From NCBI GenBank assembly GCA_964575755.1, contig CAZNRH010000002.1, positions 6,107 through 70,106 of the forward strand: a stretch of 64,000 nucleotides of DNA. The letters are read 5' to 3'. Shown piece after piece: positions 30,593 to 60,739 of this stretch. Position numbers and translations under genes: made by a program. The notes under the pieces are model-generated. The model had not been told where the DNA came from and searched no databases. It worked only from the letters and a program-made list of their open reading frames with translations. Source of the stretch: an uncultured Candidatus Saccharibacteria bacterium (GTDB lineage: Bacteria > Patescibacteriota > Minisyncoccia > Phycocordibacterales > JABMNX01). How positions within the stretch are numbered: position 1 is the first letter of the stretch; the number at the start of each line of letters is the position of its first letter.

Positions 30593-31192
30593 TTATTTTG
30601 CTTTCTTGCCAAGCTTACGCATTTTGTTGCGCCACTTGTCTTTACACTCATCCGTTGCTTTCTCGGCTGGGCCAAATACAGTTCGTCTTACTGGTGAGAT
30701 ACCTGAGAATCCTAGGATTCCGCGGATTATTTCATTAGTAAAGTCTCCAAAATGAAAGCGTATCTTAATAGGATGTGTCCCTGTTGTTACGACAACTCGT
30801 GCAGTCTTTCCTTTAAACATTTCTATAAGCTTATTAGTACGTTTCCCGTCTTTATCTTTCTTAAAATTAAACGCAAATCCAGGAAGCCACATTCGGTCAA
30901 ACAACCCCTTTAAAAGAGCCGGCATTGAACACCACCAATTTGGATACAATATAACAATATGGTCAGCCCATTTAAAATTTTCTTGAACTTGGATTAAGTC
31001 TGGCTCTAGTGCTTGAATTTCTTTATATCCTTTGTGTAATATTGGATCAAACTGCATTTCGCCAATATTAATGCGACGTACCTCATGTCCTCCAGCCTCT
31101 GCTCCTTCAACATATGCACCAGCAAGCGAACCAATCATTGAGTCTGAATCCGGGTGTCCTACAAAAACAAAAACCTTTTTCTTTCCCTTCAT
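30593..31192 (-). CDS. Flavodoxin-like-fold NAD(P)H:quinone oxidoreductase family protein
   Basis: KKVFVFVGHP...SMIGSLA nucleotide-binding start and YPNWWCSMPALLKGLFDRM motif of Flavodoxin_2/NQO1-like proteins. Confidence 0.7.
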   Translation of the reverse strand: MKGKKKVFVFVGHPDSDSMIGSLAGAYVEGAEAGGHEVRRINIGEMQFDPILHKGYKEIQALEPDLIQVQENFKWADHIVILYPNWWCSMPALLKGLFDRMWLPGFAFNFKKDKDGKRTNKLIEMFKGKTARVVVTTGTHPIKIRFHFGDFTNEIIRGILGFSGISPVRRTVFGPAEKATDECKDKWRNKMRKLGKKAK

Positions 31193-33773: not shown

Positions 33774-33850
33774 TGGTGGACCCGACAGGACTTGAACCTG
33801 CCACCTCCTCAGTGCAAGTGAGGCGCTCTAGCCAGATGAGCTACGGGCCC
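33774..33850 (-). tRNA. tRNA-Ala (anticodon UGC), CCA encoded
   Basis: Minus-strand sequence GGGCCCGTAGCTCATCTGGCTAGAGCGCCTCACTTGCACTGAGGAGGTGGCAGGTTCAAGTCCTGTCGGGTCCACCA folds as a cloverleaf with anticodon loop CTTGCAC, G3:U70 pair, GTTCAAGTCC T-arm. Confidence 0.85.
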
Positions 33851-41950: not shown

Positions 41951-43168
41951 TTACACTAAGTACTTATCAAGAAACTCGGCCTTAAACTCATAAAATTTAT
42001 CGTCAAGAATTGACTGTCTTAAGTCTTTAACTAAATTTACAATAAAATAAAGATTATGGATCGACGCGAGTGTTGCACCAAGCATTTCTTTAGAGCGAAA
42101 TAAATGTGCTAGATACGCCTTTTTATAATTCTTTGAGGTGTAACTAGGTGTATCATCGTCAATCGTTGAGAAGTCATTCCTATATTTACTATTTAAAATG
42201 TTTATAAGACCACTTTTTGTGTATAGCATCCCATTCCTTGCTATACGCGTTGGAGTAACACAATCAAATGTATCAATCCCCTTCTCTATACCGTCAAAAA
42301 TATTAAGTGGGTCTCCAATACCAAGAAGATGTCTAGGTTTTTCTTTAGGTAAGATACTATTCACTAACTTTAATGTGGCATCTAGATCTTTTTTAGTAAA
42401 CGAACCACCAATGCCGTACCCGTCAAAACTCATTTTCGCTAACGTCTCAGCACTCTCTCTACGCAAGTCTTCATGGCGACCACCTTGTATGACTCCATAC
42501 AACCCTTGCTTCCCGCTTGCTTCTATATTTCCCAAGTGAGCTTTTAAACTTCTGTCTGCCCAACGATGTGTTCTGTCCATAGCTTCTTTTTGATACTCAT
42601 AAGGAGCAGTCGGTGACGTACATTCATCAAATGCAAACATAATATCTGCACCTATATTGTGTTGTATCTCAATAGAACATTCTGCACTAAATCTGTGTGT
42701 ACTTCCATCTAAATGTGACGTAAACGTCACACCCTCTTCGTCAATACGTGCAAGTCGAGCTTACTCTAGACTAAAGTTCTTGTCGTATATTACTGGCGAT
42801 GTACTATCCTGAATATCATGAGCAAATTTACTTACATTACTATCATATGCATCTCCAAGTGAAAATACCTGAAACCCACCAGAGTCAGTTAGTGTTGGAC
42901 CTCCCCAATTCATAAACTTATTCAACCCACCAGACTCTTTAACTATATTTTCACCAGGTTCAAGATACAGATGATATGTATTTGCAAGCACTGCTTGAAC
43001 CCCAACGTAATCTCTCAACTGTTCTGGGGTAACAGACTTCACTGTGGCTTTAGTGCCAACCACAGTAAAAGCTGGAGTTTCTATCTTTCCATGAGGAGTA
43101 TCTATTACGCCAGCACGTCCAAGCTGTCCTTTGATTTGTTTTTCAATTTTAAATGAAATAGTCGACAT
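41951..43168 (-). pseudogene. tgt: Queuine tRNA-ribosyltransferase interrupted by an in-frame TAA (42761-42763)
   Basis: N-terminal piece 42761-43168 (RAGVIDTPHGKIETPAFTVVGT...LTDSGGFQVFSL) and C-terminal piece 41951-42730 (SHLDGS...GADIMFAFDEC...) are in the same frame; the 30 nt between them encode ARLARIDEEG, matching the conserved TGT region around the stop. Confidence 0.7.
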
Positions 43169-50129: not shown

Positions 50130-50669
50130 TTAGGCTCTTTTTGAACTCCCAACTATCATCATAATAATTATGATAAGTGCAAAGATTGAAAATGACATCA
50201 GAGGGAATGTGATATATCCAAACTCAAACAGAATTCGTTTAGCACAATCTGCACCAGCTCCAACCGCAGGGCACCCTATTACTTCTGTACCGCCCATTTG
50301 TAGGTAATGTTGATAGAGCGCAATAATAGACCCTATGGCAGATAGTGATATAAGATAATCTGAAACCATCACACCCTGCTTCTTAATGATTGCTATTCCC
50401 GCTAAAAGAAGCTGTGGGTATAAAACTACACGCTGCAACCAACACAATCCACATGGTACAAAGCCAAATATTTCAGAATACAGAAGACTGAAAGACACGC
50501 CACCTAATGTTAATAGAAATACTATATGAATTCCGTATTTTCCTAAAAAACTTAAAATTGGAGAATCTTTTTTAAAGAAAAATAATATAAGGAGAATTAT
50601 GACTGCTACCTGCATAAACAGAGCCCCGAGTGCTAAAAGAAAATTAAGTTGTGATACTATTTCTAACAT
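50130..50669 (-). CDS. Disulfide-bond formation protein B (BdbC/DsbB family)
   Basis: 4 TM helices; Cys pair in CGLCWLQR (BdbC-type CxxC) and second pair CPAVGAGADC in the periplasmic loop. Confidence 0.7.
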   Translation of the reverse strand: MLEIVSQLNFLLALGALFMQVAVIILLILFFFKKDSPILSFLGKYGIHIVFLLTLGGVSFSLLYSEIFGFVPCGLCWLQRVVLYPQLLLAGIAIIKKQGVMVSDYLISLSAIGSIIALYQHYLQMGGTEVIGCPAVGAGADCAKRILFEFGYITFPLMSFSIFALIIIIMMIVGSSKRA

Positions 50670-50683
50670 ATTTTATTATCTAT

Positions 50684-51058
50684 TTATTGTGTAATTTCAC
50701 ATCCTGTCTTCTCTGACAACGTCTCAAAAGAAAGTACTCCAAGCAATCTACTACCGTCTGCAAACTCCCATGTTGGATATGCCGTTATACCAGCGTCTTT
50801 ACAGACTTGTAGTTGGTTTTGTCCATTTGGTGTTGAACACTCTGTGTAATCTATAAACTTCTTAGACTTTCCAAATAAGTCATTCTGTTTCTGACAATTA
50901 GGGCACCAGAAAGCGCCAAAGTATTTCACATTATTATTTGTTAAGCACTGTGCAAATTCGTCATACTGTCCTGGCGTAACTGCATCATTGTAGTAATACC
51001 ACCCAAATAAAAGTACAACTACTACAAGAACCCCTATTATTATATTTTTTGTTTTCAT
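50684..51058 (-). CDS. Membrane-anchored thioredoxin-fold thiol-disulfide oxidoreductase (BdbD/DsbA-like)
   Basis: N-terminal TM anchor; thioredoxin CxxC motif FWCPNCQ; additional Cys pair. Confidence 0.65.
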   Translation of the reverse strand: MKTKNIIIGVLVVVVLLFGWYYYNDAVTPGQYDEFAQCLTNNNVKYFGAFWCPNCQKQNDLFGKSKKFIDYTECSTPNGQNQLQVCKDAGITAYPTWEFADGSRLLGVLSFETLSEKTGCEITQ

Positions 51059-51077
51059 ATATTATTTAACTAATTTT

Positions 51078-51584
51078 TTAAGGAATAATACAAAATGCAG
51101 GATCGGTACAATCTACTCCAGCAAAAGTACCATCTATGTCTACATCAAGTGCTTCTTGTTCTATTTGTTCAAGAACTGCTTTAAGTAAATATCCTGCACA
51201 CAACCCTGACGAGCACACACCTCCATTATAATTTGTCCCTTGATATGAGTATGAATAAACACCCCTATTGAGAGGATCAATGGGCATAACTCTGATATAA
51301 CCTCCATCTGTAAGAACTGTGAACGTGTCTCCTGGAGGATAAAGTCCGTTAGTGTCGGCACCATAAAGCTCTAACGCATTCTTTATTTGTTGGAGGTCTT
51401 CAAAACGTCTACTGTCACGGCTTTTTTCACGTGCATCACTAAGAATAACCATACTAATACTGGTAAGAAATCCAATAATTGCTATCACAACCAAAAGTTC
51501 TATAAGTGTAAATCCCCGTCCACCTCGCAAGCGAGAGCGTTGCGGATTAGTATTTTTTTTATAATCTTTTTTAAAGAAAAACAT
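51078..51584 (-). CDS. Type IV pilin / pseudopilin with N-terminal methylation motif
   Basis: Class III signal GFTLIELLVVIAIIGFL; C-terminal domain with two Cys pairs (CSSGLC, CTDPAFC). Confidence 0.75.
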   Translation of the reverse strand: MFFFKKDYKKNTNPQRSRLRGGRGFTLIELLVVIAIIGFLTSISMVILSDAREKSRDSRRFEDLQQIKNALELYGADTNGLYPPGDTFTVLTDGGYIRVMPIDPLNRGVYSYSYQGTNYNGGVCSSGLCAGYLLKAVLEQIEQEALDVDIDGTFAGVDCTDPAFCIIP

Positions 51585-51688
51585 ACAAGTTATTGTAGTG
51601 ATTTAAACAATACGGTTCGTACAAATAAAAACTTACTGCACCCTCAAGGAGTACTCAAGATTCCTAGAGTGTTATCACACTAAGGAAT

Positions 51689-51784
51689 CTACTGCATTTC
51701 GTGTGGACGCAGACCTTTTTTAGTCTTGTTTTTCTTAGATTCACTCTTTTTTTCTTTCTTCTGTTTATCTCTTCCTTTTGCCAT
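51689..51784 (-). CDS. Possible Lys-rich 31-aa micro-protein (MAKGRDKQKKEKKSESKKNKTKKGLRPHEMQ)
   Basis: Hand-translated; no clear RBS; coding status doubtful. Confidence 0.2.
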   Translation of the reverse strand: MAKGRDKQKKEKKSESKKNKTKKGLRPHEMQ

Positions 51785-54408: not shown

Positions 54409-54945
54409 TTACTCACACACCAAAGGTTCCTTTATCTTTTTCAAGATTATGTAAGAAGAATAAATAAGTAAACCTACACCAAGAAAGCCAAACTCTTCAC
54501 CTCCAAAAGGTAAATAGACAAGTAAGCCACTTGCTCCAAATAAGGCTAATATTGAAGTGAATACAAATGTACCACATGTAGCACAGCCAATACCAAACAC
54601 TCCACTAACCAAGCCCCCTACACTCAAAGTAGTACCAGATGCTAAACTTTTTGTTTGTCTACTACGTATATAATAAACCAAAAGTGAGATATTTATACCA
54701 AACAGTACAGCTATAATAATCGTATAGCTTGCAGAAATAGCCGTAAAATTTGTTTGTATAGACCCAACAAAACTAAACATGAAACCTATTTTGTCTGTAA
54801 TAGGTACACTGGAATTAAATACTATGTCAATTACCAAACTGACGTTTGATAGCCACACCGCCAATACAAATATCACTACTGCAATAATAACTGCAGTAGC
54901 TATATATTTTATCTGAGAGAAAACCTTTTTAAAAGTATTTAACAC
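54409..54945 (-). CDS. Membrane protein with intramembrane CxxC (CATCGT)
   Basis: About 5 TM helices; Cys pair inside a TM helix; last gene of the CsoR-headed operon. Confidence 0.45.
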   Translation of the reverse strand: MLNTFKKVFSQIKYIATAVIIAVVIFVLAVWLSNVSLVIDIVFNSSVPITDKIGFMFSFVGSIQTNFTAISASYTIIIAVLFGINISLLVYYIRSRQTKSLASGTTLSVGGLVSGVFGIGCATCGTFVFTSILALFGASGLLVYLPFGGEEFGFLGVGLLIYSSYIILKKIKEPLVCE

Positions 54946-54947
54946 AA

Positions 54948-55697
54948 TTATTTTTTCTCTTTTAGAGCTATTTCAATAAGTTGTTTTACTGTTGAGTACG
55001 GCTGAGCACCAGAAAGTGGAAATGTTGTCTTGCTTTTTTCCGCGATAACTATACTCCACGGAGTACCTCTGGCTCCAGTCTCAATTGCATTATCTATATT
55101 GTCTTGTATGTGCTTATCATACTTCCCGCTATTCATACATGCACTAAATTTCTGCTCATCTATAGCAAGCTCTCTGACTATTTGAGGAATAACCACTTCA
55201 ATATTGATTTGATTGTTAGATGGTGTTAACTCAAACAATCTATCAGCGAATTTCCAAAACACATCATTACCACCTATCTCATTAGCGCACTCTGTCGCAA
55301 CTGCCTCAACGCGCGCTTTCACTGGATGTAATTGATCAATTGGAAAATGTCTATATACCCAAGCCACTTGTCCATCTGGACCATACTCATCCATGATTTG
55401 GTTCATTGTAACGTGGAATGACTTACAGAAAGGACACTCAAAATCAGAATATTCAACAATTTTTACGGGAGCATTTGGATTTCCTAATATATGATCTTCG
55501 TTTGTTACAGGGCGGACACTGTCAGTAGGGCTTACCTCTTTCGACACACTGTTTCCATTACTATACACCACTGCAAATGCTATAAGGGCTCCAGCTATTA
55601 CAATCGCAACTGGAACGAAAATATTATTCTTTGTCTCTTGCTCTTGATACTCTTCTTTGTTTTCTATATTTACAGTCTGATCTTCCATGGTACTCAA
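54948..55697 (-). CDS. Membrane-anchored DsbA-family thiol:disulfide oxidoreductase
   Basis: TM anchor then thioredoxin fold with CPFC active site (YSDFECPFCKSFH) and DsbA-type helical insertion. Confidence 0.7.
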   Translation of the reverse strand: MSTMEDQTVNIENKEEYQEQETKNNIFVPVAIVIAGALIAFAVVYSNGNSVSKEVSPTDSVRPVTNEDHILGNPNAPVKIVEYSDFECPFCKSFHVTMNQIMDEYGPDGQVAWVYRHFPIDQLHPVKARVEAVATECANEIGGNDVFWKFADRLFELTPSNNQINIEVVIPQIVRELAIDEQKFSACMNSGKYDKHIQDNIDNAIETGARGTPWSIVIAEKSKTTFPLSGAQPYSTVKQLIEIALKEKK

Positions 55698-55731: not shown

Positions 55732-57777
55732 TTATACCACCTCTAAATTAACTCGCTTTAAAGATAATGCATTAATAACAACGATAACCGTTGAAAGGCT
55801 CATTAGTAAAGCGCCTATCTCTGGACGTAAGAAAAATCCAAATACCGCAAACACTCCTGCTGCTGCTGGGATGGCGACAATGTTGTAGCCAAGCGCCCAC
55901 ACAAGATTTTGAATCATCTTTGTATATACTGCTTTTGAGAGTACAAGTAATTTAACAATATCCCTAGGGTCGCTCTTCATAAGCACTACGTCGCCAGCCT
56001 CCACAGCAACATCCGTACCAGCCCCTATTGCGATACCTACATTTGCTTGAGTTAATGCTGGCGCATCATTTACACCGTCGCCTACCATAAGAACTACACT
56101 ACCGTCTTCTTGTAATTTTTTTATATGATTGTACTTATCTTCAGGTAGAACATTTGCAAAATATGTGTCTATGTTGAGTTTTTTTGCTACCCCTCCCGCA
56201 ACATCATTGTTATCACCAGTAAGCATCGCGACCTTAACCCCAAGCTTGTGTAGTTTACTGACAGCGCTATATGATTCATCTTTTATTTCATCAGAAAGAG
56301 CAATCACCCCAACTACCTTCTTGTCACTTGTAATAAATACTGACGTCTTGCCCTCTGCAGAAAAATCTGCATACACCTTCTCTGCTTCAGTATCTGATAT
56401 CTTAGCGTCTGTTATAAGTGCATGATTTCCAACTCCATGCTCAACACCATCAACCACGCCACTAACCCCCTTACCTGCTATGTTTTTAAACTGCTTAGGA
56501 TTACTCAAAACAATCCCTTTTTCTTTTACATAATTTACAATAGACTTCCCAATAATATGAGAAGAGTGCTGTTCTAGAGATGCAACTATCTTTAATACTT
56601 GATCATCTGTGTGCTCGTTAAATGACACAATATCAGTCACCCCAAACTCTCCTTTTGTTAAGGTGCCTGTTTTATCAAATACAACATAATTAGTTTTTTT
56701 AATAACTTCAATTTTTGACAAATCTTTAATAAACACACCATTTTTTACCGCCAGTGAAGTTGTGATGGTGGTGACTGTCGGTATAGCCAGACCAAGGGCA
56801 TGAGGGCACGCCACAACAAGCACGGTGATACCAAGGGTAATAGAAAACACAAACGGTTCCCCCATAAACACAGACCACACAAGAATTGTTAAGAGAGCGG
56901 TGATACCAGCAATAAAAGTAAGCATAGCAGCGGCTTTATCTGCAATACGCTGTGAGCGTGGTTTTGTACTTTGTGCGTCAGAAATAAGTTTCTGAATTTG
57001 ACCAATAGTAGAGTCTTCACCAACTCGAGATAACACTATGACAAGTGAACCATCTAAACATATAGAACCAGCCACAACTTCGTCTTTTTCTTTTTTCTCA
57101 ATAGGTTTTGATTCCCCACTTATAAGTGACTCGTCTATGTTCGCAGAACCTTCTTTAATAATTCCATCTGCAGGAATCTTCTCTCCTGGTTTTACCAGTA
57201 CGATATCCCCATCCTTCAGAAGTTCAACACCCACCTCCTCTTCCACCCCATTTACAATCTTATGGGCTTTCTTAGGTAAAAGCTTAGCAACTTCTTGGAG
57301 GGCATTACCAGCAGCAGTACTAGAGCGTGCCTCAAGATAATGCCCAAAAAGAAGTACCCATATAAGTGTAGATATTTCAATATAAAACTCTGCGTCTAGT
57401 GCTGGTATAAACGTAGAAACTACAGAAAAAAGGTACCCTGAACCAACAGCCAGAGAGACCAGGGTCATCATTCCATATTTCCGAGCCTTTATCTCGTGCG
57501 ATGCGTGCTCGAAAAACACTAGAGCAAAACCAAATATAATTGTTGCTATGCCGAGCTGAATCCACTTACCAAGAGGGAGTGTACCTATTCCTATAAACCC
57601 CACTACGGATTCATTTGTAAATATAAGTGGAATTAAAAGAAATGTAACAATCCAAAATCTACGAAGAAAATCCCTAGATGAACCGTGATCCATCCCAGGG
57701 CTACTAGAATGCTCGACGCCACACGCGTCGTGTTGCTTATCACCACAATGTTCCATACTCACATTCTTTTGTGTCAC
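55732..57777 (-). CDS. copB: P1B-type heavy-metal (copper) translocating ATPase, CopB-like
   Basis: TM6 CPH motif (VVACPHALGLAIPT), DKTGTLT, GDGVNDAPAL, TGES actuator; His/Cys-rich N-terminus (MEHCGDKQHDACGVEH) instead of a classic GMTCxxC HMA domain. Confidence 0.9.
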   Translation of the reverse strand: MTQKNVSMEHCGDKQHDACGVEHSSSPGMDHGSSRDFLRRFWIVTFLLIPLIFTNESVVGFIGIGTLPLGKWIQLGIATIIFGFALVFFEHASHEIKARKYGMMTLVSLAVGSGYLFSVVSTFIPALDAEFYIEISTLIWVLLFGHYLEARSSTAAGNALQEVAKLLPKKAHKIVNGVEEEVGVELLKDGDIVLVKPGEKIPADGIIKEGSANIDESLISGESKPIEKKEKDEVVAGSICLDGSLVIVLSRVGEDSTIGQIQKLISDAQSTKPRSQRIADKAAAMLTFIAGITALLTILVWSVFMGEPFVFSITLGITVLVVACPHALGLAIPTVTTITTSLAVKNGVFIKDLSKIEVIKKTNYVVFDKTGTLTKGEFGVTDIVSFNEHTDDQVLKIVASLEQHSSHIIGKSIVNYVKEKGIVLSNPKQFKNIAGKGVSGVVDGVEHGVGNHALITDAKISDTEAEKVYADFSAEGKTSVFITSDKKVVGVIALSDEIKDESYSAVSKLHKLGVKVAMLTGDNNDVAGGVAKKLNIDTYFANVLPEDKYNHIKKLQEDGSVVLMVGDGVNDAPALTQANVGIAIGAGTDVAVEAGDVVLMKSDPRDIVKLLVLSKAVYTKMIQNLVWALGYNIVAIPAAAGVFAVFGFFLRPEIGALLMSLSTVIVVINALSLKRVNLEVV

Positions 57778-57795
57778 TTTGTTTCTATTATTTAA

Positions 57796-58062
57796 TTAAT
57801 TTTTATCTTTTTCCAACTCTTCAAATTTTTCTGTAAATTGTTCTTTTGTTGCACCTCCAAAAACAAAAAATTTATCGTTGACCAAAATACCAGGACTTGA
57901 AAGGATCCCATACTTTTTAACCATTTCCTGTCCCTCAGGGGTCACCATATCAACTTCTTCGATTGTTATATCAGGATAATCTGATTTCATTTCTTCAAGT
58001 GTTGCTTTTACCGCTTTACAATGTGCACATCCATCTGGACGAATAAGTGTTACTTTTAACAT
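57796..58062 (-). CDS. Glutaredoxin/thioredoxin-like small protein (CAHC)
   Basis: 88 aa, CxxC motif PDGCAHCKAV near N-terminus, thioredoxin-fold length. Confidence 0.6.
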   Translation of the reverse strand: MLKVTLIRPDGCAHCKAVKATLEEMKSDYPDITIEEVDMVTPEGQEMVKKYGILSSPGILVNDKFFVFGGATKEQFTEKFEELEKDKN

Positions 58063-58088
58063 AATTTTTATAATTTATTAATTTACTA

Positions 58089-58322
58089 TTAATTTTTCCG
58101 ACCTTTTTTAATAATTTTTGCTACAACTACTGTCGCGACAATAATTAAAACTGCAACAAGTGGTCCAACCCAATCCGCCTCAGAAATCACGGTGATGTTT
58201 TCCTCTCCTTCATGAGCAAACACAGTTGCGGACGACAGTAGAAAGTATGCGATTGTGAGAATGGTTAATTTCACCCCGTTAGAAGTCTGTCTTACATAAC
58301 TACTATGTTTAATTTTATACAT
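58089..58322 (-). CDS. Small secreted/membrane protein with HEGEEN motif and C-terminal TM anchor
   Basis: Signal peptide, acidic His/Glu patch, C-terminal helix plus KKGRKN stop-transfer. Confidence 0.35.
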   Translation of the reverse strand: MYKIKHSSYVRQTSNGVKLTILTIAYFLLSSATVFAHEGEENITVISEADWVGPLVAVLIIVATVVVAKIIKKGRKN

Positions 58323-58376
58323 ATTTTATATTTATTATGTCCCATTAACCCGATTTAGAGAAACTTCTAACGGGGT

Positions 58377-59342
58377 TCATATATTTTTAATATTTCTTTT
58401 TGAATGAATAGCGTCCCAAAGAACAATTACTCCGATAATACCCCCAAATACAAGCCATGGGACAATACCACCTTCACCAGATGGGATACTGAGCGAGGCT
58501 TCAATAGCACCCGACTCAGCAATTCTAGGAAATGCAATTTCTAACCATCTATTCCACGCTTGATGGATGATAGAATCTTCAAACCATGCCATACCAAATA
58601 TGCCGTAGTTTAATATGAATGCACCAAGACCAACCAACATCCATGAAACCCACCGTTTCACTTTTTCTTGATAGTCACTAACCTTGCTCATAGCGTTAAT
58701 TCCTAAGACTGCCAAGACCACCAAGAAAAGTAGTGGTACGACTCTACCAAGTCCATGTATAGCGCCAAGCGAAGCTCCTACTGTTGGTATTCCAACAGTC
58801 GCAACATAACCAAATAAAATATAAAACGCAGGATTAGGGCATCCTACACCAGCATTGCCTAAGAAAAAACCTAAAAAGAAACTCCTCAAATAGTCATTTT
58901 TGCCTTGGAGAGATTTAGGCATGATTGTCTGCTTAAAAGGTAATCTAAACTTCACAAGACCAAGTTCCGAAATACCAAAGAAAAGTGCCGCGACCCCTCC
59001 AATCAAAAGCATAGCACTTATAATCTTGTACAATGCAACAAATCCACCAAGCCATCCAAGGACAACTCCGTATATAGTGAATGTAACAATGAGTCCAAGC
59101 CCAAAGAGAAGTGCCATCATGAACCCCTTACCTTTTTCTCGCGAAAGAGCTAACGGAACAATAATAAAGACAAGCGGAAATGTACATGGTAGTACTATCA
59201 TAGAAAGCCCCGCAAGAAATGCGAGAGAATATCCAGGTATGAACTCAGACGAGGTCATAAAACTGAAGACCCCAATGAGAATAATCGACAAAAGTACAAA
59301 TGCCGAGAATACAAGCCAAATTTTAAAAACTTTTGAAGTCAT
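58377..59342 (-). CDS. DsbD/CcdA-family membrane thiol-disulfide electron transporter-like protein
   Basis: Polytopic; two intramembrane Cys in CcdA-like contexts (MIVLPCTFPL and GVGCPNPAF). Confidence 0.5.
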   Translation of the reverse strand: MTSKVFKIWLVFSAFVLLSIILIGVFSFMTSSEFIPGYSLAFLAGLSMIVLPCTFPLVFIIVPLALSREKGKGFMMALLFGLGLIVTFTIYGVVLGWLGGFVALYKIISAMLLIGGVAALFFGISELGLVKFRLPFKQTIMPKSLQGKNDYLRSFFLGFFLGNAGVGCPNPAFYILFGYVATVGIPTVGASLGAIHGLGRVVPLLFLVVLAVLGINAMSKVSDYQEKVKRWVSWMLVGLGAFILNYGIFGMAWFEDSIIHQAWNRWLEIAFPRIAESGAIEASLSIPSGEGGIVPWLVFGGIIGVIVLWDAIHSKRNIKNI

Positions 59343-59382
59343 ATATTAATTATATTTTAGATTATATAAAACCATAACCCAC

Positions 59383-59859
59383 TTATTCAACATCATTTTT
59401 AACAACATTGCCTGAAAACGTCACTTTAATCTCTGGTGTAACTGTAGAATTGGTTTTAAGCATTAATTCTCGCTTTATTTTACCTATACCATTTGGTCCA
59501 TGTGCAAGAGGGTCAAAAGTAGCAGTAAGAGTCTTTTCTTCTCCAGCTGGAATAATCACAGTTTTACCAGAACTTTCATGCATACCAAATTCTAAATCAC
59601 CTATTTTTCCTGCTGTGCACATACAGCTTGTTACAGCCGATAAAATACTAACATCTTCATCTCCTTCATTTTTAAGTGTATACGTAGTACTTACTTTTCC
59701 ACTAAATATGTCTATGTCACCGAAGTCATGTGATGGTTCAACAACTGTTATAACCGATGCAACTTCAGTAAGTTGAGAAGTTTCATCTTTTGTTAATCCA
59801 TATGAAGCAACTATGAGTATCCCTACAAGTATTAATGCTCCTATTATATATTTATTCAT
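59383..59859 (-). CDS. Secreted DUF1573-domain protein
   Basis: Signal peptide; HDFGDI...YTLKNEGDEDVSI...SCMCT pattern typical of DUF1573 Ig-like domains. Confidence 0.55.
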   Translation of the reverse strand: MNKYIIGALILVGILIVASYGLTKDETSQLTEVASVITVVEPSHDFGDIDIFSGKVSTTYTLKNEGDEDVSILSAVTSCMCTAGKIGDLEFGMHESSGKTVIIPAGEEKTLTATFDPLAHGPNGIGKIKRELMLKTNSTVTPEIKVTFSGNVVKNDVE

Positions 59860-59884
59860 TGTTTCTTAATATTAAATTAATAAA

Positions 59885-60739
59885 CTATTCCCCTTCTTTA
59901 ATGTCGACTTGTATTGCCACTTCAGCTTCAGGTGTTAATTTATCGTTAGTTGGGATAAAAATCGTGCGCTTAAATACACCAAGTGGTTCTTCATGAAAAT
60001 CTGGGTTGAAAAACACAGTGAGGATTGTCTCTCCTCCTTTAGGAATGGTTCGTGAAGCAACATTTGCAGATGTACAACTACAACTTGTTGTAATATCTCC
60101 TATTACAAGTTCCTCTGTTCCCTCATTCTTTACTGTAAAAGTTGTCTCTACTACACCACCATATTGTGTGATAACACCGAAATCATGCATAATACGGTCA
60201 AGAGTTATCCTTGGACCATCTGAAGATGCGTCTACATCATTCCCGCTCGCTGTGTTCGCACCAGTAAGCGCTCCTGTTTCAGTAAATGGGTAATTATCTT
60301 CTTCCCAATGAATCATTCCTCCTGAAACACTCTTTATATTTGTGTAACCAAGTGAATTCATAATGTCATATGCGGTCTTACTCCGCGCACCGCTTCTGCA
60401 ATATATAATGATCTCTTTGTCTTTTGAGGACTCTCCCAATCCAATACTAGCTAGCGACTGCTGTGATAATTCTTGAACTGGAAGAAGTAGAGCACCTTTT
60501 AGATGGATTTCCTCATATTCTCCTAAAGTTCGTACGTCTAGTAAAATAATATCTTTATTATTTTTAATTTTGTTGGCTACATCTTCTGGATAAATTTCGT
60601 GACTTTCTACCATCTCGTTTTCATGATGTCCTACATCTGTCATCATACTGTTGTTATTCATACTAGTTGTAAAAAAGTAACCGATTCCTATAACAACAAC
60701 TAATGTAAAAGATATAGTAGCAATGTTGTTTATATTCAT
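59885..60739 (-). CDS. Membrane-anchored rhodanese (sulfurtransferase) domain fused to a DUF1573 domain
   Basis: Rhodanese active-site loop YCRSGARS; C-terminal HDFGVI...FTVKNEGTEELVI...SCSCT DUF1573. Confidence 0.7.
   Translation of the reverse strand: MNINNIATISFTLVVVIGIGYFFTTSMNNNSMMTDVGHHENEMVESHEIYPEDVANKIKNNKDIILLDVRTLGEYEEIHLKGALLLPVQELSQQSLASIGLGESSKDKEIIIYCRSGARSKTAYDIMNSLGYTNIKSVSGGMIHWEEDNYPFTETGALTGANTASGNDVDASSDGPRITLDRIMHDFGVITQYGGVVETTFTVKNEGTEELVIGDITTSCSCTSANVASRTIPKGGETILTVFFNPDFHEEPLGVFKRTIFIPTNDKLTPEAEVAIQVDIKEGE

Follow-up and report, generated by a model that had tools for sequence, protein, structure and literature searches.

A thioredoxin-like/DsbB gene pair behind a type IV pilin gene in a Saccharibacteria bacterium is probably a general oxidative-folding cassette rather than a pilus-dedicated module

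When a cysteine-rich type IV pilin gene is followed directly by genes for a thioredoxin-like protein and a DsbB-family membrane oxidase, are the oxidase genes there for the pilin or only next to it? The question is raised by positions 50130–51584 of a 64,000-nucleotide stretch of DNA, hereafter the window, from an uncultured Candidatus Saccharibacteria bacterium (NCBI GenBank assembly GCA_964575755.1, contig CAZNRH010000002.1, positions 6,107 to 70,106 of the forward strand). Three open reading frames (ORFs), all on the minus strand, fill this interval exactly, with the motifs first described for them at these coordinates. An earlier note on this DNA took the arrangement to be a built-in oxidative-folding module for pilus or competence-pilus biogenesis. 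Part of that proposal stands: adjacency to pilins is enriched and a loose functional link is plausible, but the three-gene order is not conserved. Our analysis indicates that the thioredoxin-like/DsbB pair is probably a general cassette, with the pilin as one likely client. The features of the locus are as follows.

51584..51078, minus strand: type IV prepilin or pseudopilin, 168 aa; RGGRG before the cleavage point and FTLIELLVVIAIIG after it; Cys 124, 129, 159 and 165
51058..50684, minus strand: membrane-anchored thioredoxin-like (Trx-like) oxidoreductase, 124 aa; CPNC; N-terminal transmembrane (TM) anchor
50669..50130, minus strand: DsbB/BdbC-family membrane thiol oxidase (named by family), 179 aa; CGLCWLQR; PF02600
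50128..50081, minus strand: intrinsic-terminator-like hairpin and T-run, directly 3' of the dsbB stop codon

Since all three genes lie on the minus strand and the pilin gene is transcribed first, the two oxidase genes are immediately downstream of the pilin gene, not upstream of it as had been thought. Transcription proceeds from pilin to Trx-like to DsbB across gaps of 19 bp and then 14 bp, and a scan for consensus terminators found no terminator-like site in either gap. The stem of the hairpin after dsbB has 20 pairs, 9 of them GC, and TTTTGG follows it. Weak hairpins were found inside the pilin ORF (5 pairs; 51275..51262) and upstream of it (6 pairs; 51654..51638), and the region has 7 terminator-like sites where 1.4 are expected from shuffles. 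The hairpin after dsbB is the probable 3' end of a pilin-Trx-dsbB transcription unit, and the three genes are probably co-transcribed as one unit.

The distribution of the pair across Patescibacteria bears directly on the question. We surveyed 80 loci, each species being represented by a single genome, that were retrieved with the Trx-like family as bait. A DsbB gene is directly downstream of the Trx-like gene and on the same strand in 63 of the 80 loci, and in 63 of the 65 bacterial ones. One further locus has a DsbB gene 2 kb from the Trx-like gene, and of the 16 loci that lack DsbB, 15 carry a DPANN archaeal label and one is bacterial. The two genes nearly abut or overlap slightly (extrapolated median gap of approximately −9 bp). 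A Trx-like gene followed by a DsbB gene is a widely conserved two-gene unit in Patescibacteria. Yet a pilin gene adjoins the pair in only 4 of the 63 loci; otherwise its flanks hold varying housekeeping genes, among them those for SecA, Obg and GatB. The pair is therefore best regarded as a general oxidative-folding system of the lineage, housekeeping and not dedicated to the pilus, whose position behind the pilin gene is lineage-specific. What the data show directly is that the proteins belong to these families, that their catalytic residues are conserved, that Trx-like and DsbB genes are tightly and widely paired, and that pilin cysteines are conserved in pairs.

The surveyed loci contain five prepilin genes in all. 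In the two nearest relatives of the window (L001 and L002), the pilin gene is just upstream of the pair, in L067 and L073 it is just downstream of DsbB, and the fifth is 2.6 kb from the pair. Across 590 kb of loci that bear the cassette, four of these five genes are thus within 900 bp of the pair, which exceeds uniform placement (P = 0.005, or P = 0.02 if L001 and L002 are counted as one event; the sample is small). These placements suggest that linkage of pilin and cassette is recurrent but infrequent. Because adjacency exceeds random placement, a loose functional link between the pair and pilins is plausible. A reverse survey covered 80 metagenome loci found with the pilin, most of them with distant pilins and only L081–L084 being close relatives. 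The pair is missing within ∼4 kb in 79 of these 80 loci; L130 is the sole one with a nearby DsbB gene, and none has a nearby Trx-like gene.

Loci more closely related to the window differ in what follows the pilin gene. The clade has a conserved backbone of genes for the pilin, a GH1 beta-glucosidase, an EamA transporter, a GH5/42-like glycosidase, a SIS protein and a ROK kinase, often with a cupin gene nearby. The slot after the pilin holds the Trx-DsbB pair in the window, L001, L002, L161, L162/L163 and L164; in some cases, a glycosyltransferase or Gmad2 gene is beside the pair, and in L164 the cupin gene is between the pilin and Trx-like genes. Relatives with the same downstream synteny have nothing in the slot (L081/L082, pilin 74% identical; L084, 61%) or a DUF3105 gene (L167, 63%). 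All of these pilins, with or without an adjacent cassette, keep the four cysteines. Orthologous pilins therefore exist both with and without the pair beside them. The three-gene order, whose conservation in relatives had been put forward as a check on the module, is kept only within part of the clade of the window. In its distribution, the cassette resembles a unit that either entered a variable site or was lost from it.

The proposal that the pair is a dedicated module, serving this pilin and its pilus or a competence pseudopilus in the way that a private chaperone is encoded in a pilin operon, is improbable in light of these distributions. The tight spacing of the three genes and a strong terminator found only after dsbB are what such a module would have. 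At least six distinct contigs of the clade share its arrangement, down to 56–58% identity of the Trx-like protein, independent arrangements with the pilin gene after DsbB are present in L067, L073 and L130, and adjacency is enriched (P ∼0.005–0.02). There is also a precedent, as the intramolecular disulfide of the ComGC pseudopilin in Bacillus subtilis depends on BdbDC. However, 59 of the 63 Trx-DsbB pairs have no pilin gene within 6 kb. Sister contigs have an orthologous four-Cys pilin and identical downstream synteny but lack the pair at the site, and the pilin encoded there can thus only be served in trans, if it is served. The cupin gene of L164 separates the pilin from its supposed partner, and adjacency of the pilin to the GH1, EamA and glycosidase genes, which have no role in pili, is at least as conserved as its adjacency to the pair. 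Lastly, no pilus-assembly gene (pilB/C/D/M/N/O) was recognized in the window, where 30 ORFs were searched with Pfam and the rest judged by translation only.

The first gene product is a type IV pilin or pseudopilin by sequence. It has a 24-residue basic leader and a cleavage site between G24 and F25 (F25-TLIE29, then LLVVIAIIGFL), with Gly at −1, Glu at +5 and a hydrophobic helix following, as in class III signal peptides. Scores for PF07963 N_methyl (27.5 bits; cut-off of 21.2 bits) and TIGR02532 (27.5 bits; cut-off of 16.3 bits) bear out the prepilin peptidase site (GFTLIELL) that the earlier note had read from the letters. The two pairs of cysteines (124, 129, 159 and 165) are in the globular head. 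The N-terminal helix matches those of solved pilins and pseudopilins (e.g., 7tgg, E = 1e-10). An AlphaFold2 model built with 48 homologues (pLDDT of 91.8) has a lollipop fold, in which a long helix (27–77) precedes a small beta-sheet head (strands 113–117, 131–137 and 163–166). The top fold matches of the model in the Protein Data Bank (PDB) are the pilins CofA and PilW; Foldseek E-values are non-significant for this model and for that of DsbB, and the matches serve only as supporting rank-1 matches. The protein is not an equivalog of ComGC (NF040999, 19.7 bits vs. a cut-off of 75) or of GspG (TIGR01710, 46.6 bits vs. 88.85); Patescibacteria type IV pilin or pseudopilin, with the subtype left unassigned, is the most fitting name. 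No other prepilin motif is present in the window.

Conservation of the cysteines in the pilin family follows a paired pattern. Among 120 homologues, 79 retain all four cysteine columns, and 115 have an even number of cysteines (2, 4 or 6). Spacing between the second and third cysteines is nearly fixed at 29 residues, and homologues with two cysteines have lost them in pairs, leaving either the third and fourth or the second and third. The family thus appears to behave as disulfide-bonded, and because its four cysteines are lost in pairs, the pilin is a likely client of the oxidase pair.

This pattern also bears on the opposite proposal, that the juxtaposition is accidental, with the cassette having been inserted or retained in a permissive slot after a pilin that is no significant substrate. 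Variation in the slot between the pilin and GH1 genes, which is empty, holds a DUF3105 gene, or holds a glycosyltransferase or Gmad2 gene alongside the pair, is consistent with a permissive site, as is the presence of the cassette in unrelated housekeeping contexts elsewhere. But accident alone is an unlikely account: it does not predict that four of five pilin genes would be so close to the pair, nor that pilin cysteines would be conserved and lost in pairs. Moreover, exported proteins with paired cysteines are the expected clients of a DsbB system wherever a cell has one.

Several observations on the neighbourhood of the pilin gene stand apart from these arguments. Relatives have tandem pilin paralogs beside the orthologous pilin (L001 5002–5475; L161 5545–5976; P0142 and P0145–P0147). 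One has a degenerate prepilin signal, RKRWFVLIEFW, and in others an ordinary TM anchor precedes the pilin head; because this anchor is similar to that of the Trx-like protein, the neighbouring genes may have recombined. In the window, the 636-bp region upstream of the pilin gene has no remnant of the cupin or second-pilin genes that are found in relatives. The sole content of this region is a conserved, lysine-rich ORF of 31 aa (MAKGRDKQKKEKKSESKKNKTKKGLRPHEMQ; ∼51686–51781, minus strand). A 60%-identical copy is at the corresponding place in a relative (L161 4740–4829; L166 875–970), and the ORF is annotated as a gene in public assemblies.

The membrane component is a member of the DsbB family. 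The protein matches PF02600 over residues 48–172 (40.8 bits vs. a cut-off of 22.1 bits; E = 3.8e-10), a family that is also carried by all 120 listed homologues. The motif C73-G-L-C76-W-L-Q-R80 is in loop 1 and C133/C142 are in loop 2; in 36 sequences, C73, C76, W77, R80, C133 and C142 are invariant. The description of a DsbB/BdbC-type membrane oxidase with CGLCWLQR is therefore upheld. A profile of the 36 homologues matches E. coli DsbB (2hi7/2zup; E = 1.4e-4), with C41/C44/R48 and C104 aligned. A phmmer search of the PDB with the single sequence returned only proteasome matches, which we rejected as spurious. The closest NCBIfam model is the BdbC-type PRK03113 (75.2 bits), and as this is below its cut-off of 124 and PRK00611 scores 59 against 145, the BdbC type is the closest named subfamily without the protein of the window being a member.

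The DsbB homologues differ from the four-helix core of the family in their N terminus. Every homologue has ∼45 extra residues there, and these include a confidently modelled helix at residues 3–32. An AlphaFold2 model (pLDDT of 86.8) has helices at 3–32, 37–67, 74–96, 99–124 and 154–178 and a short loop helix at 142–150; five TM helices are predicted, of which the N-terminal one is additional to the core. The top PDB fold match of the model is E. coli DsbB (6wvf), with a probability of 0.97 and a TM-score of 0.56 but a Foldseek E-value of 0.84. The distribution of charge suggests a five-helix topology with the N terminus outside and the C terminus inside. The invariant Arg80, which corresponds to R48 of E. 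coli, is the one feature that points to a re-oxidation of DsbB that would depend on quinone.

The partner of DsbB belongs to a different branch of the thioredoxins than had been supposed. The Trx-like protein has a TM anchor at approximately residues 6–27 with the N terminus inside; C52-P-N-C55 and the cis-Pro motif YPTW are in its extracytoplasmic domain. In an alignment of 32 sequences, the consensus of the active site is CPHC, and four further cysteines (38, 74, 86 and 120) bring the number of invariant cysteines to six. No Pfam threshold is reached (Thioredoxin, 18.4 bits vs. a cut-off of 23.5; Thioredoxin_2 is also below threshold). Membership in DsbA, BdbD or MdbA was rejected, as the protein has no match to PF01323 or PF13462 and is only 124 aa. 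Its best solved relatives, 3kp8, 3kp9 and 4nv2, are of the thioredoxin-like domain of Synechococcus VKOR (E = 2.9e-17 to 3kp8_A), and the alignment conserves WCPxCQxQ, the ECS..C pair and YPTW over ∼85 residues. The TM anchor, CPNC motif and thioredoxin fold claimed for this protein are thus retained, but its family is the VKOR-associated type and not one like DsbA or BdbD. On these alignments, we regard it as a membrane-anchored, stand-alone copy of the VKOR-associated thioredoxin-like domain.

An exhaustive search for the Trx-like family yielded 3138 cluster representatives at 50% identity, mostly stand-alone proteins of 120–200 aa; in longer members, the Trx domain is combined with VKOR, PsbP-like, RDD or peptidoglycan-binding domains. 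Among the relatives of ∼265–296 aa that we checked, fusions are to VKOR (e.g., P0416 and P0458), PsbP-like or RDD domains, and in P0403 and P0494 the Trx domain is the only one detected. None of 10 longer members checked is fused to DsbB. Apparent long Trx-DsbB fusion ORFs in L004 and L067 are artefacts of choosing the longest ORF, as the frames differ and the starts are offset by 64 and 136 nt. The Trx-like protein of the window is not covalently fused to a VKOR membrane domain, and its neighbour encodes DsbB. Separately, the loci labelled as DPANN (L006, L010, L016, L018, L025, L051, L079 and others) encode the same VKOR-type Trx-like protein at 48–56% identity, often with an extra N-terminal cytoplasmic segment of the C2H2 zinc-finger type, and have no DsbB gene within 6 kb. 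This suggests that the Trx-like gene is shared between bacteria of the Candidate Phyla Radiation (CPR) and DPANN archaea, or that the bins are mislabelled.

Together, these features can be arranged into a mechanism for the general cassette. The exported, anchored Trx-like protein would use CPNC to oxidize pairs of cysteines in secreted or membrane-anchored proteins at the outer face of the membrane. The five-helix DsbB would then re-oxidize the Trx-like protein via its CxxC and second pair of cysteines, and would pass electrons on to a membrane quinone bound near the invariant Arg80. At this locus, the pair would probably be transcribed from the promoter of the pilin gene, with the side effect that the oxidase is supplied alongside an abundant, disulfide-bonded client. 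We infer the direction of electron flow, the use of quinone, co-transcription with the pilin gene and the status of the pilin as a substrate, relying on the established biochemistry of Dsb, Bdb and VKOR systems and on the conservation of residues described above.

The pair is not the only candidate for thiol chemistry in the window, which also encodes the following.

54948–55697, minus strand: DsbA/MdbA-like CPFC protein; Thioredoxin_4 (E = 2e-22), with PF01323 and PF13462 both strong
54409–54945, minus strand: polytopic membrane protein of 178 aa with an intramembrane GCATCG (CATC) motif, directly after the DsbA/MdbA-like gene
55732–57777, minus strand: P-type ATPase
58377–59342, minus strand: CcdA/DsbD_TM homologue
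59383–59859, minus strand: DUF1573 protein
59885–60739, minus strand: rhodanese and DUF1573 protein
30593–31192, minus strand: Flavodoxin_2 or NAD(P)H dehydrogenase (quinone)-type gene; PF02525, E = 2e-35

The envelope redox and metal cluster at 55732–60739, together with the items described before it, makes a region of ∼10 kb that is rich in extracytoplasmic thiol chemistry, and the cell evidently has several predicted envelope thiol-redox components. The DsbA/MdbA-like gene and that of the 178-aa membrane protein are also adjacent in L001 (83–1078). The latter protein has no match in Pfam or NCBIfam, and could be a re-oxidase or a metal-handling partner. The Flavodoxin_2 gene is of interest because DsbB depends on quinone, for which CPR genomes are said to lack a synthesis route. 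That the Trx-like protein is reductive or an isomerase, like the partners of CcdA or DsbD or like ResA or DsbC, and not the primary oxidase, is very improbable despite its small fold without the helical insert of DsbA and the CcdA/DsbD_TM protein encoded in the window, because its near-universal neighbour is DsbB and not CcdA, its consensus CPHC is that of DsbA and of the oxidizing Trx-like domain of VKOR, and the CcdA gene is 7 kb away in a different cluster with candidate partners of its own.

Four points weigh against regarding the pair as a general cassette that works in the manner proposed. First, adjacency to a pilin gene recurs in at least three lineages (L001/L002, L067 and L073) and the DsbB gene of L130 also adjoins one; the cassette may have some selective link to pilins. 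Second, no sigma-70-like promoter was detected directly ahead of the pilin gene. Third, the DsbA-like CPFC protein is encoded separately at a distance of 3.4 kb and could be the main partner of DsbB or a parallel oxidase. Fourth, complete quinone synthesis is generally reported to be missing from CPR genomes, and scavenging has been proposed (PMC6031116).

Comparison with characterized systems places the cassette between several of them. Similar to bdbDC of B. subtilis, it is a two-gene unit in which the extracytoplasmic thiol oxidase is encoded first and the DsbB-family membrane protein second; its DsbB is closest to the BdbC-type model and a potential client is a type IV pilin-like protein, as is ComGC. 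Unlike BdbD, the partner is a 124-aa protein of the VKOR-associated type that matches neither PF01323 nor PF13462. Unlike BdbC, for which the NCBIfam models have 136–139 positions and match only from residue 39–54, DsbB has an extra N-terminal helix, and both it and the pilin score below the cut-offs for BdbC and ComGC, respectively. The analogy that the earlier note drew to BdbDC and ComGC is therefore reasonable for how the system would work, and fails for the partner, which is not BdbD-like.

The two components resemble different relatives. As in Synechococcus VKOR (3KP9 and 4NV2), where the thioredoxin-like domain is a built-in partner domain of the enzyme, a homologous domain is tethered to the membrane beside the enzyme that would re-oxidize it. 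In contrast to that system, the domain is here a separate gene product with its own anchor, and the adjacent enzyme is of the DsbB and not the VKOR family. As in E. coli DsbB, CxxCxxxR is in loop 1, a second pair of cysteines is in loop 2, and a short amphipathic loop helix is predicted. But the relation in sequence is remote, with the profile match aligned only from position 48, there are five helices instead of four, and the partner is of another thioredoxin subfamily than E. coli DsbA and is membrane-anchored rather than soluble. The concept shared with MdbA-VKOR of Actinomyces and Corynebacterium is pilin folding, in bacteria that have no outer membrane, by a membrane-bound thiol oxidase with a membrane quinone reductase to re-oxidize it; the MdbA/DsbA-like protein of the window, however, adjoins the uncharacterized CxxC membrane protein and not a VKOR.

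A role for such enzymes in pilin folding has been proposed previously. An MdbA-like oxidoreductase enriched in CPR, often beside VKOR, was suggested to fold type IV pilins of CPR (Meheust et al. 2019; PMC6744442), and paired cysteines were also noted in a recent preprint on another CPR pilus. The proposal of Meheust et al. concerns the MdbA/DsbA-like family fam000318 with VKOR, unlike the VKOR-type Trx and DsbB described here. In the searchable literature, we found nothing relevant on DsbB in CPR or Patescibacteria and no description of a VKOR-type Trx combined with DsbB. The concept that CPR oxidoreductases take part in pilin folding has thus already been voiced, and it is the hardware that differs, in having a separate VKOR-type Trx and a DsbB with an extra helix. 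In its architecture, the locus departs only modestly from a well-known pathway.

Other features of the window do not touch on these subjects. The gene for queuine tRNA-ribosyltransferase (tgt; 41951–43168, minus strand) is interrupted by a single in-frame TAA. Its two ORFs (43168..42761 and 42730..41951) share a reading frame, and the sequence across the stop matches the intact Tgt in L056; a pseudogene, a site of read-through and an error of assembly are each conceivable. The minus strand carries nearly all genes of the window and every 2-kb bin (1–64000) has a negative GC skew, a pattern that fits a single replication arm with a strong gene-strand bias. Its RNA content is one tRNA (Ala-TGC, 33774–33850), with no further Rfam match.

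A broader reading would join several of these observations. The main disulfide machine of Patescibacteria would be a five-helix DsbB with a separately anchored VKOR-type Trx, the extra helix of DsbB would dock the anchor of its partner and so imitate the VKOR-TM5-Trx arrangement, the Trx component would be common to DPANN archaea, and the machine would run on quinone derived from a host since the cells cannot make quinones. We consider this unlikely as a whole. Were it true, a chemical coupling would exist between the episymbiotic lifestyle and the folding of surface proteins, pili among them.

In CPR bacteria, a central part in host attachment and DNA uptake is ascribed to type IV pili, and as their pilins usually have paired cysteines, an oxidative-folding system bears on the stability of the filament. 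Many Patescibacteria carry a tightly linked Trx-like/DsbB pair in which the oxidase is of the VKOR-associated type, raising the question of which electron acceptor is used in organisms reported to lack quinone synthesis. The main value of the finding is corrective: the neighbourhood resembles a purpose-built pilus module, whereas comparative data reveal a general system in a lineage-specific position.

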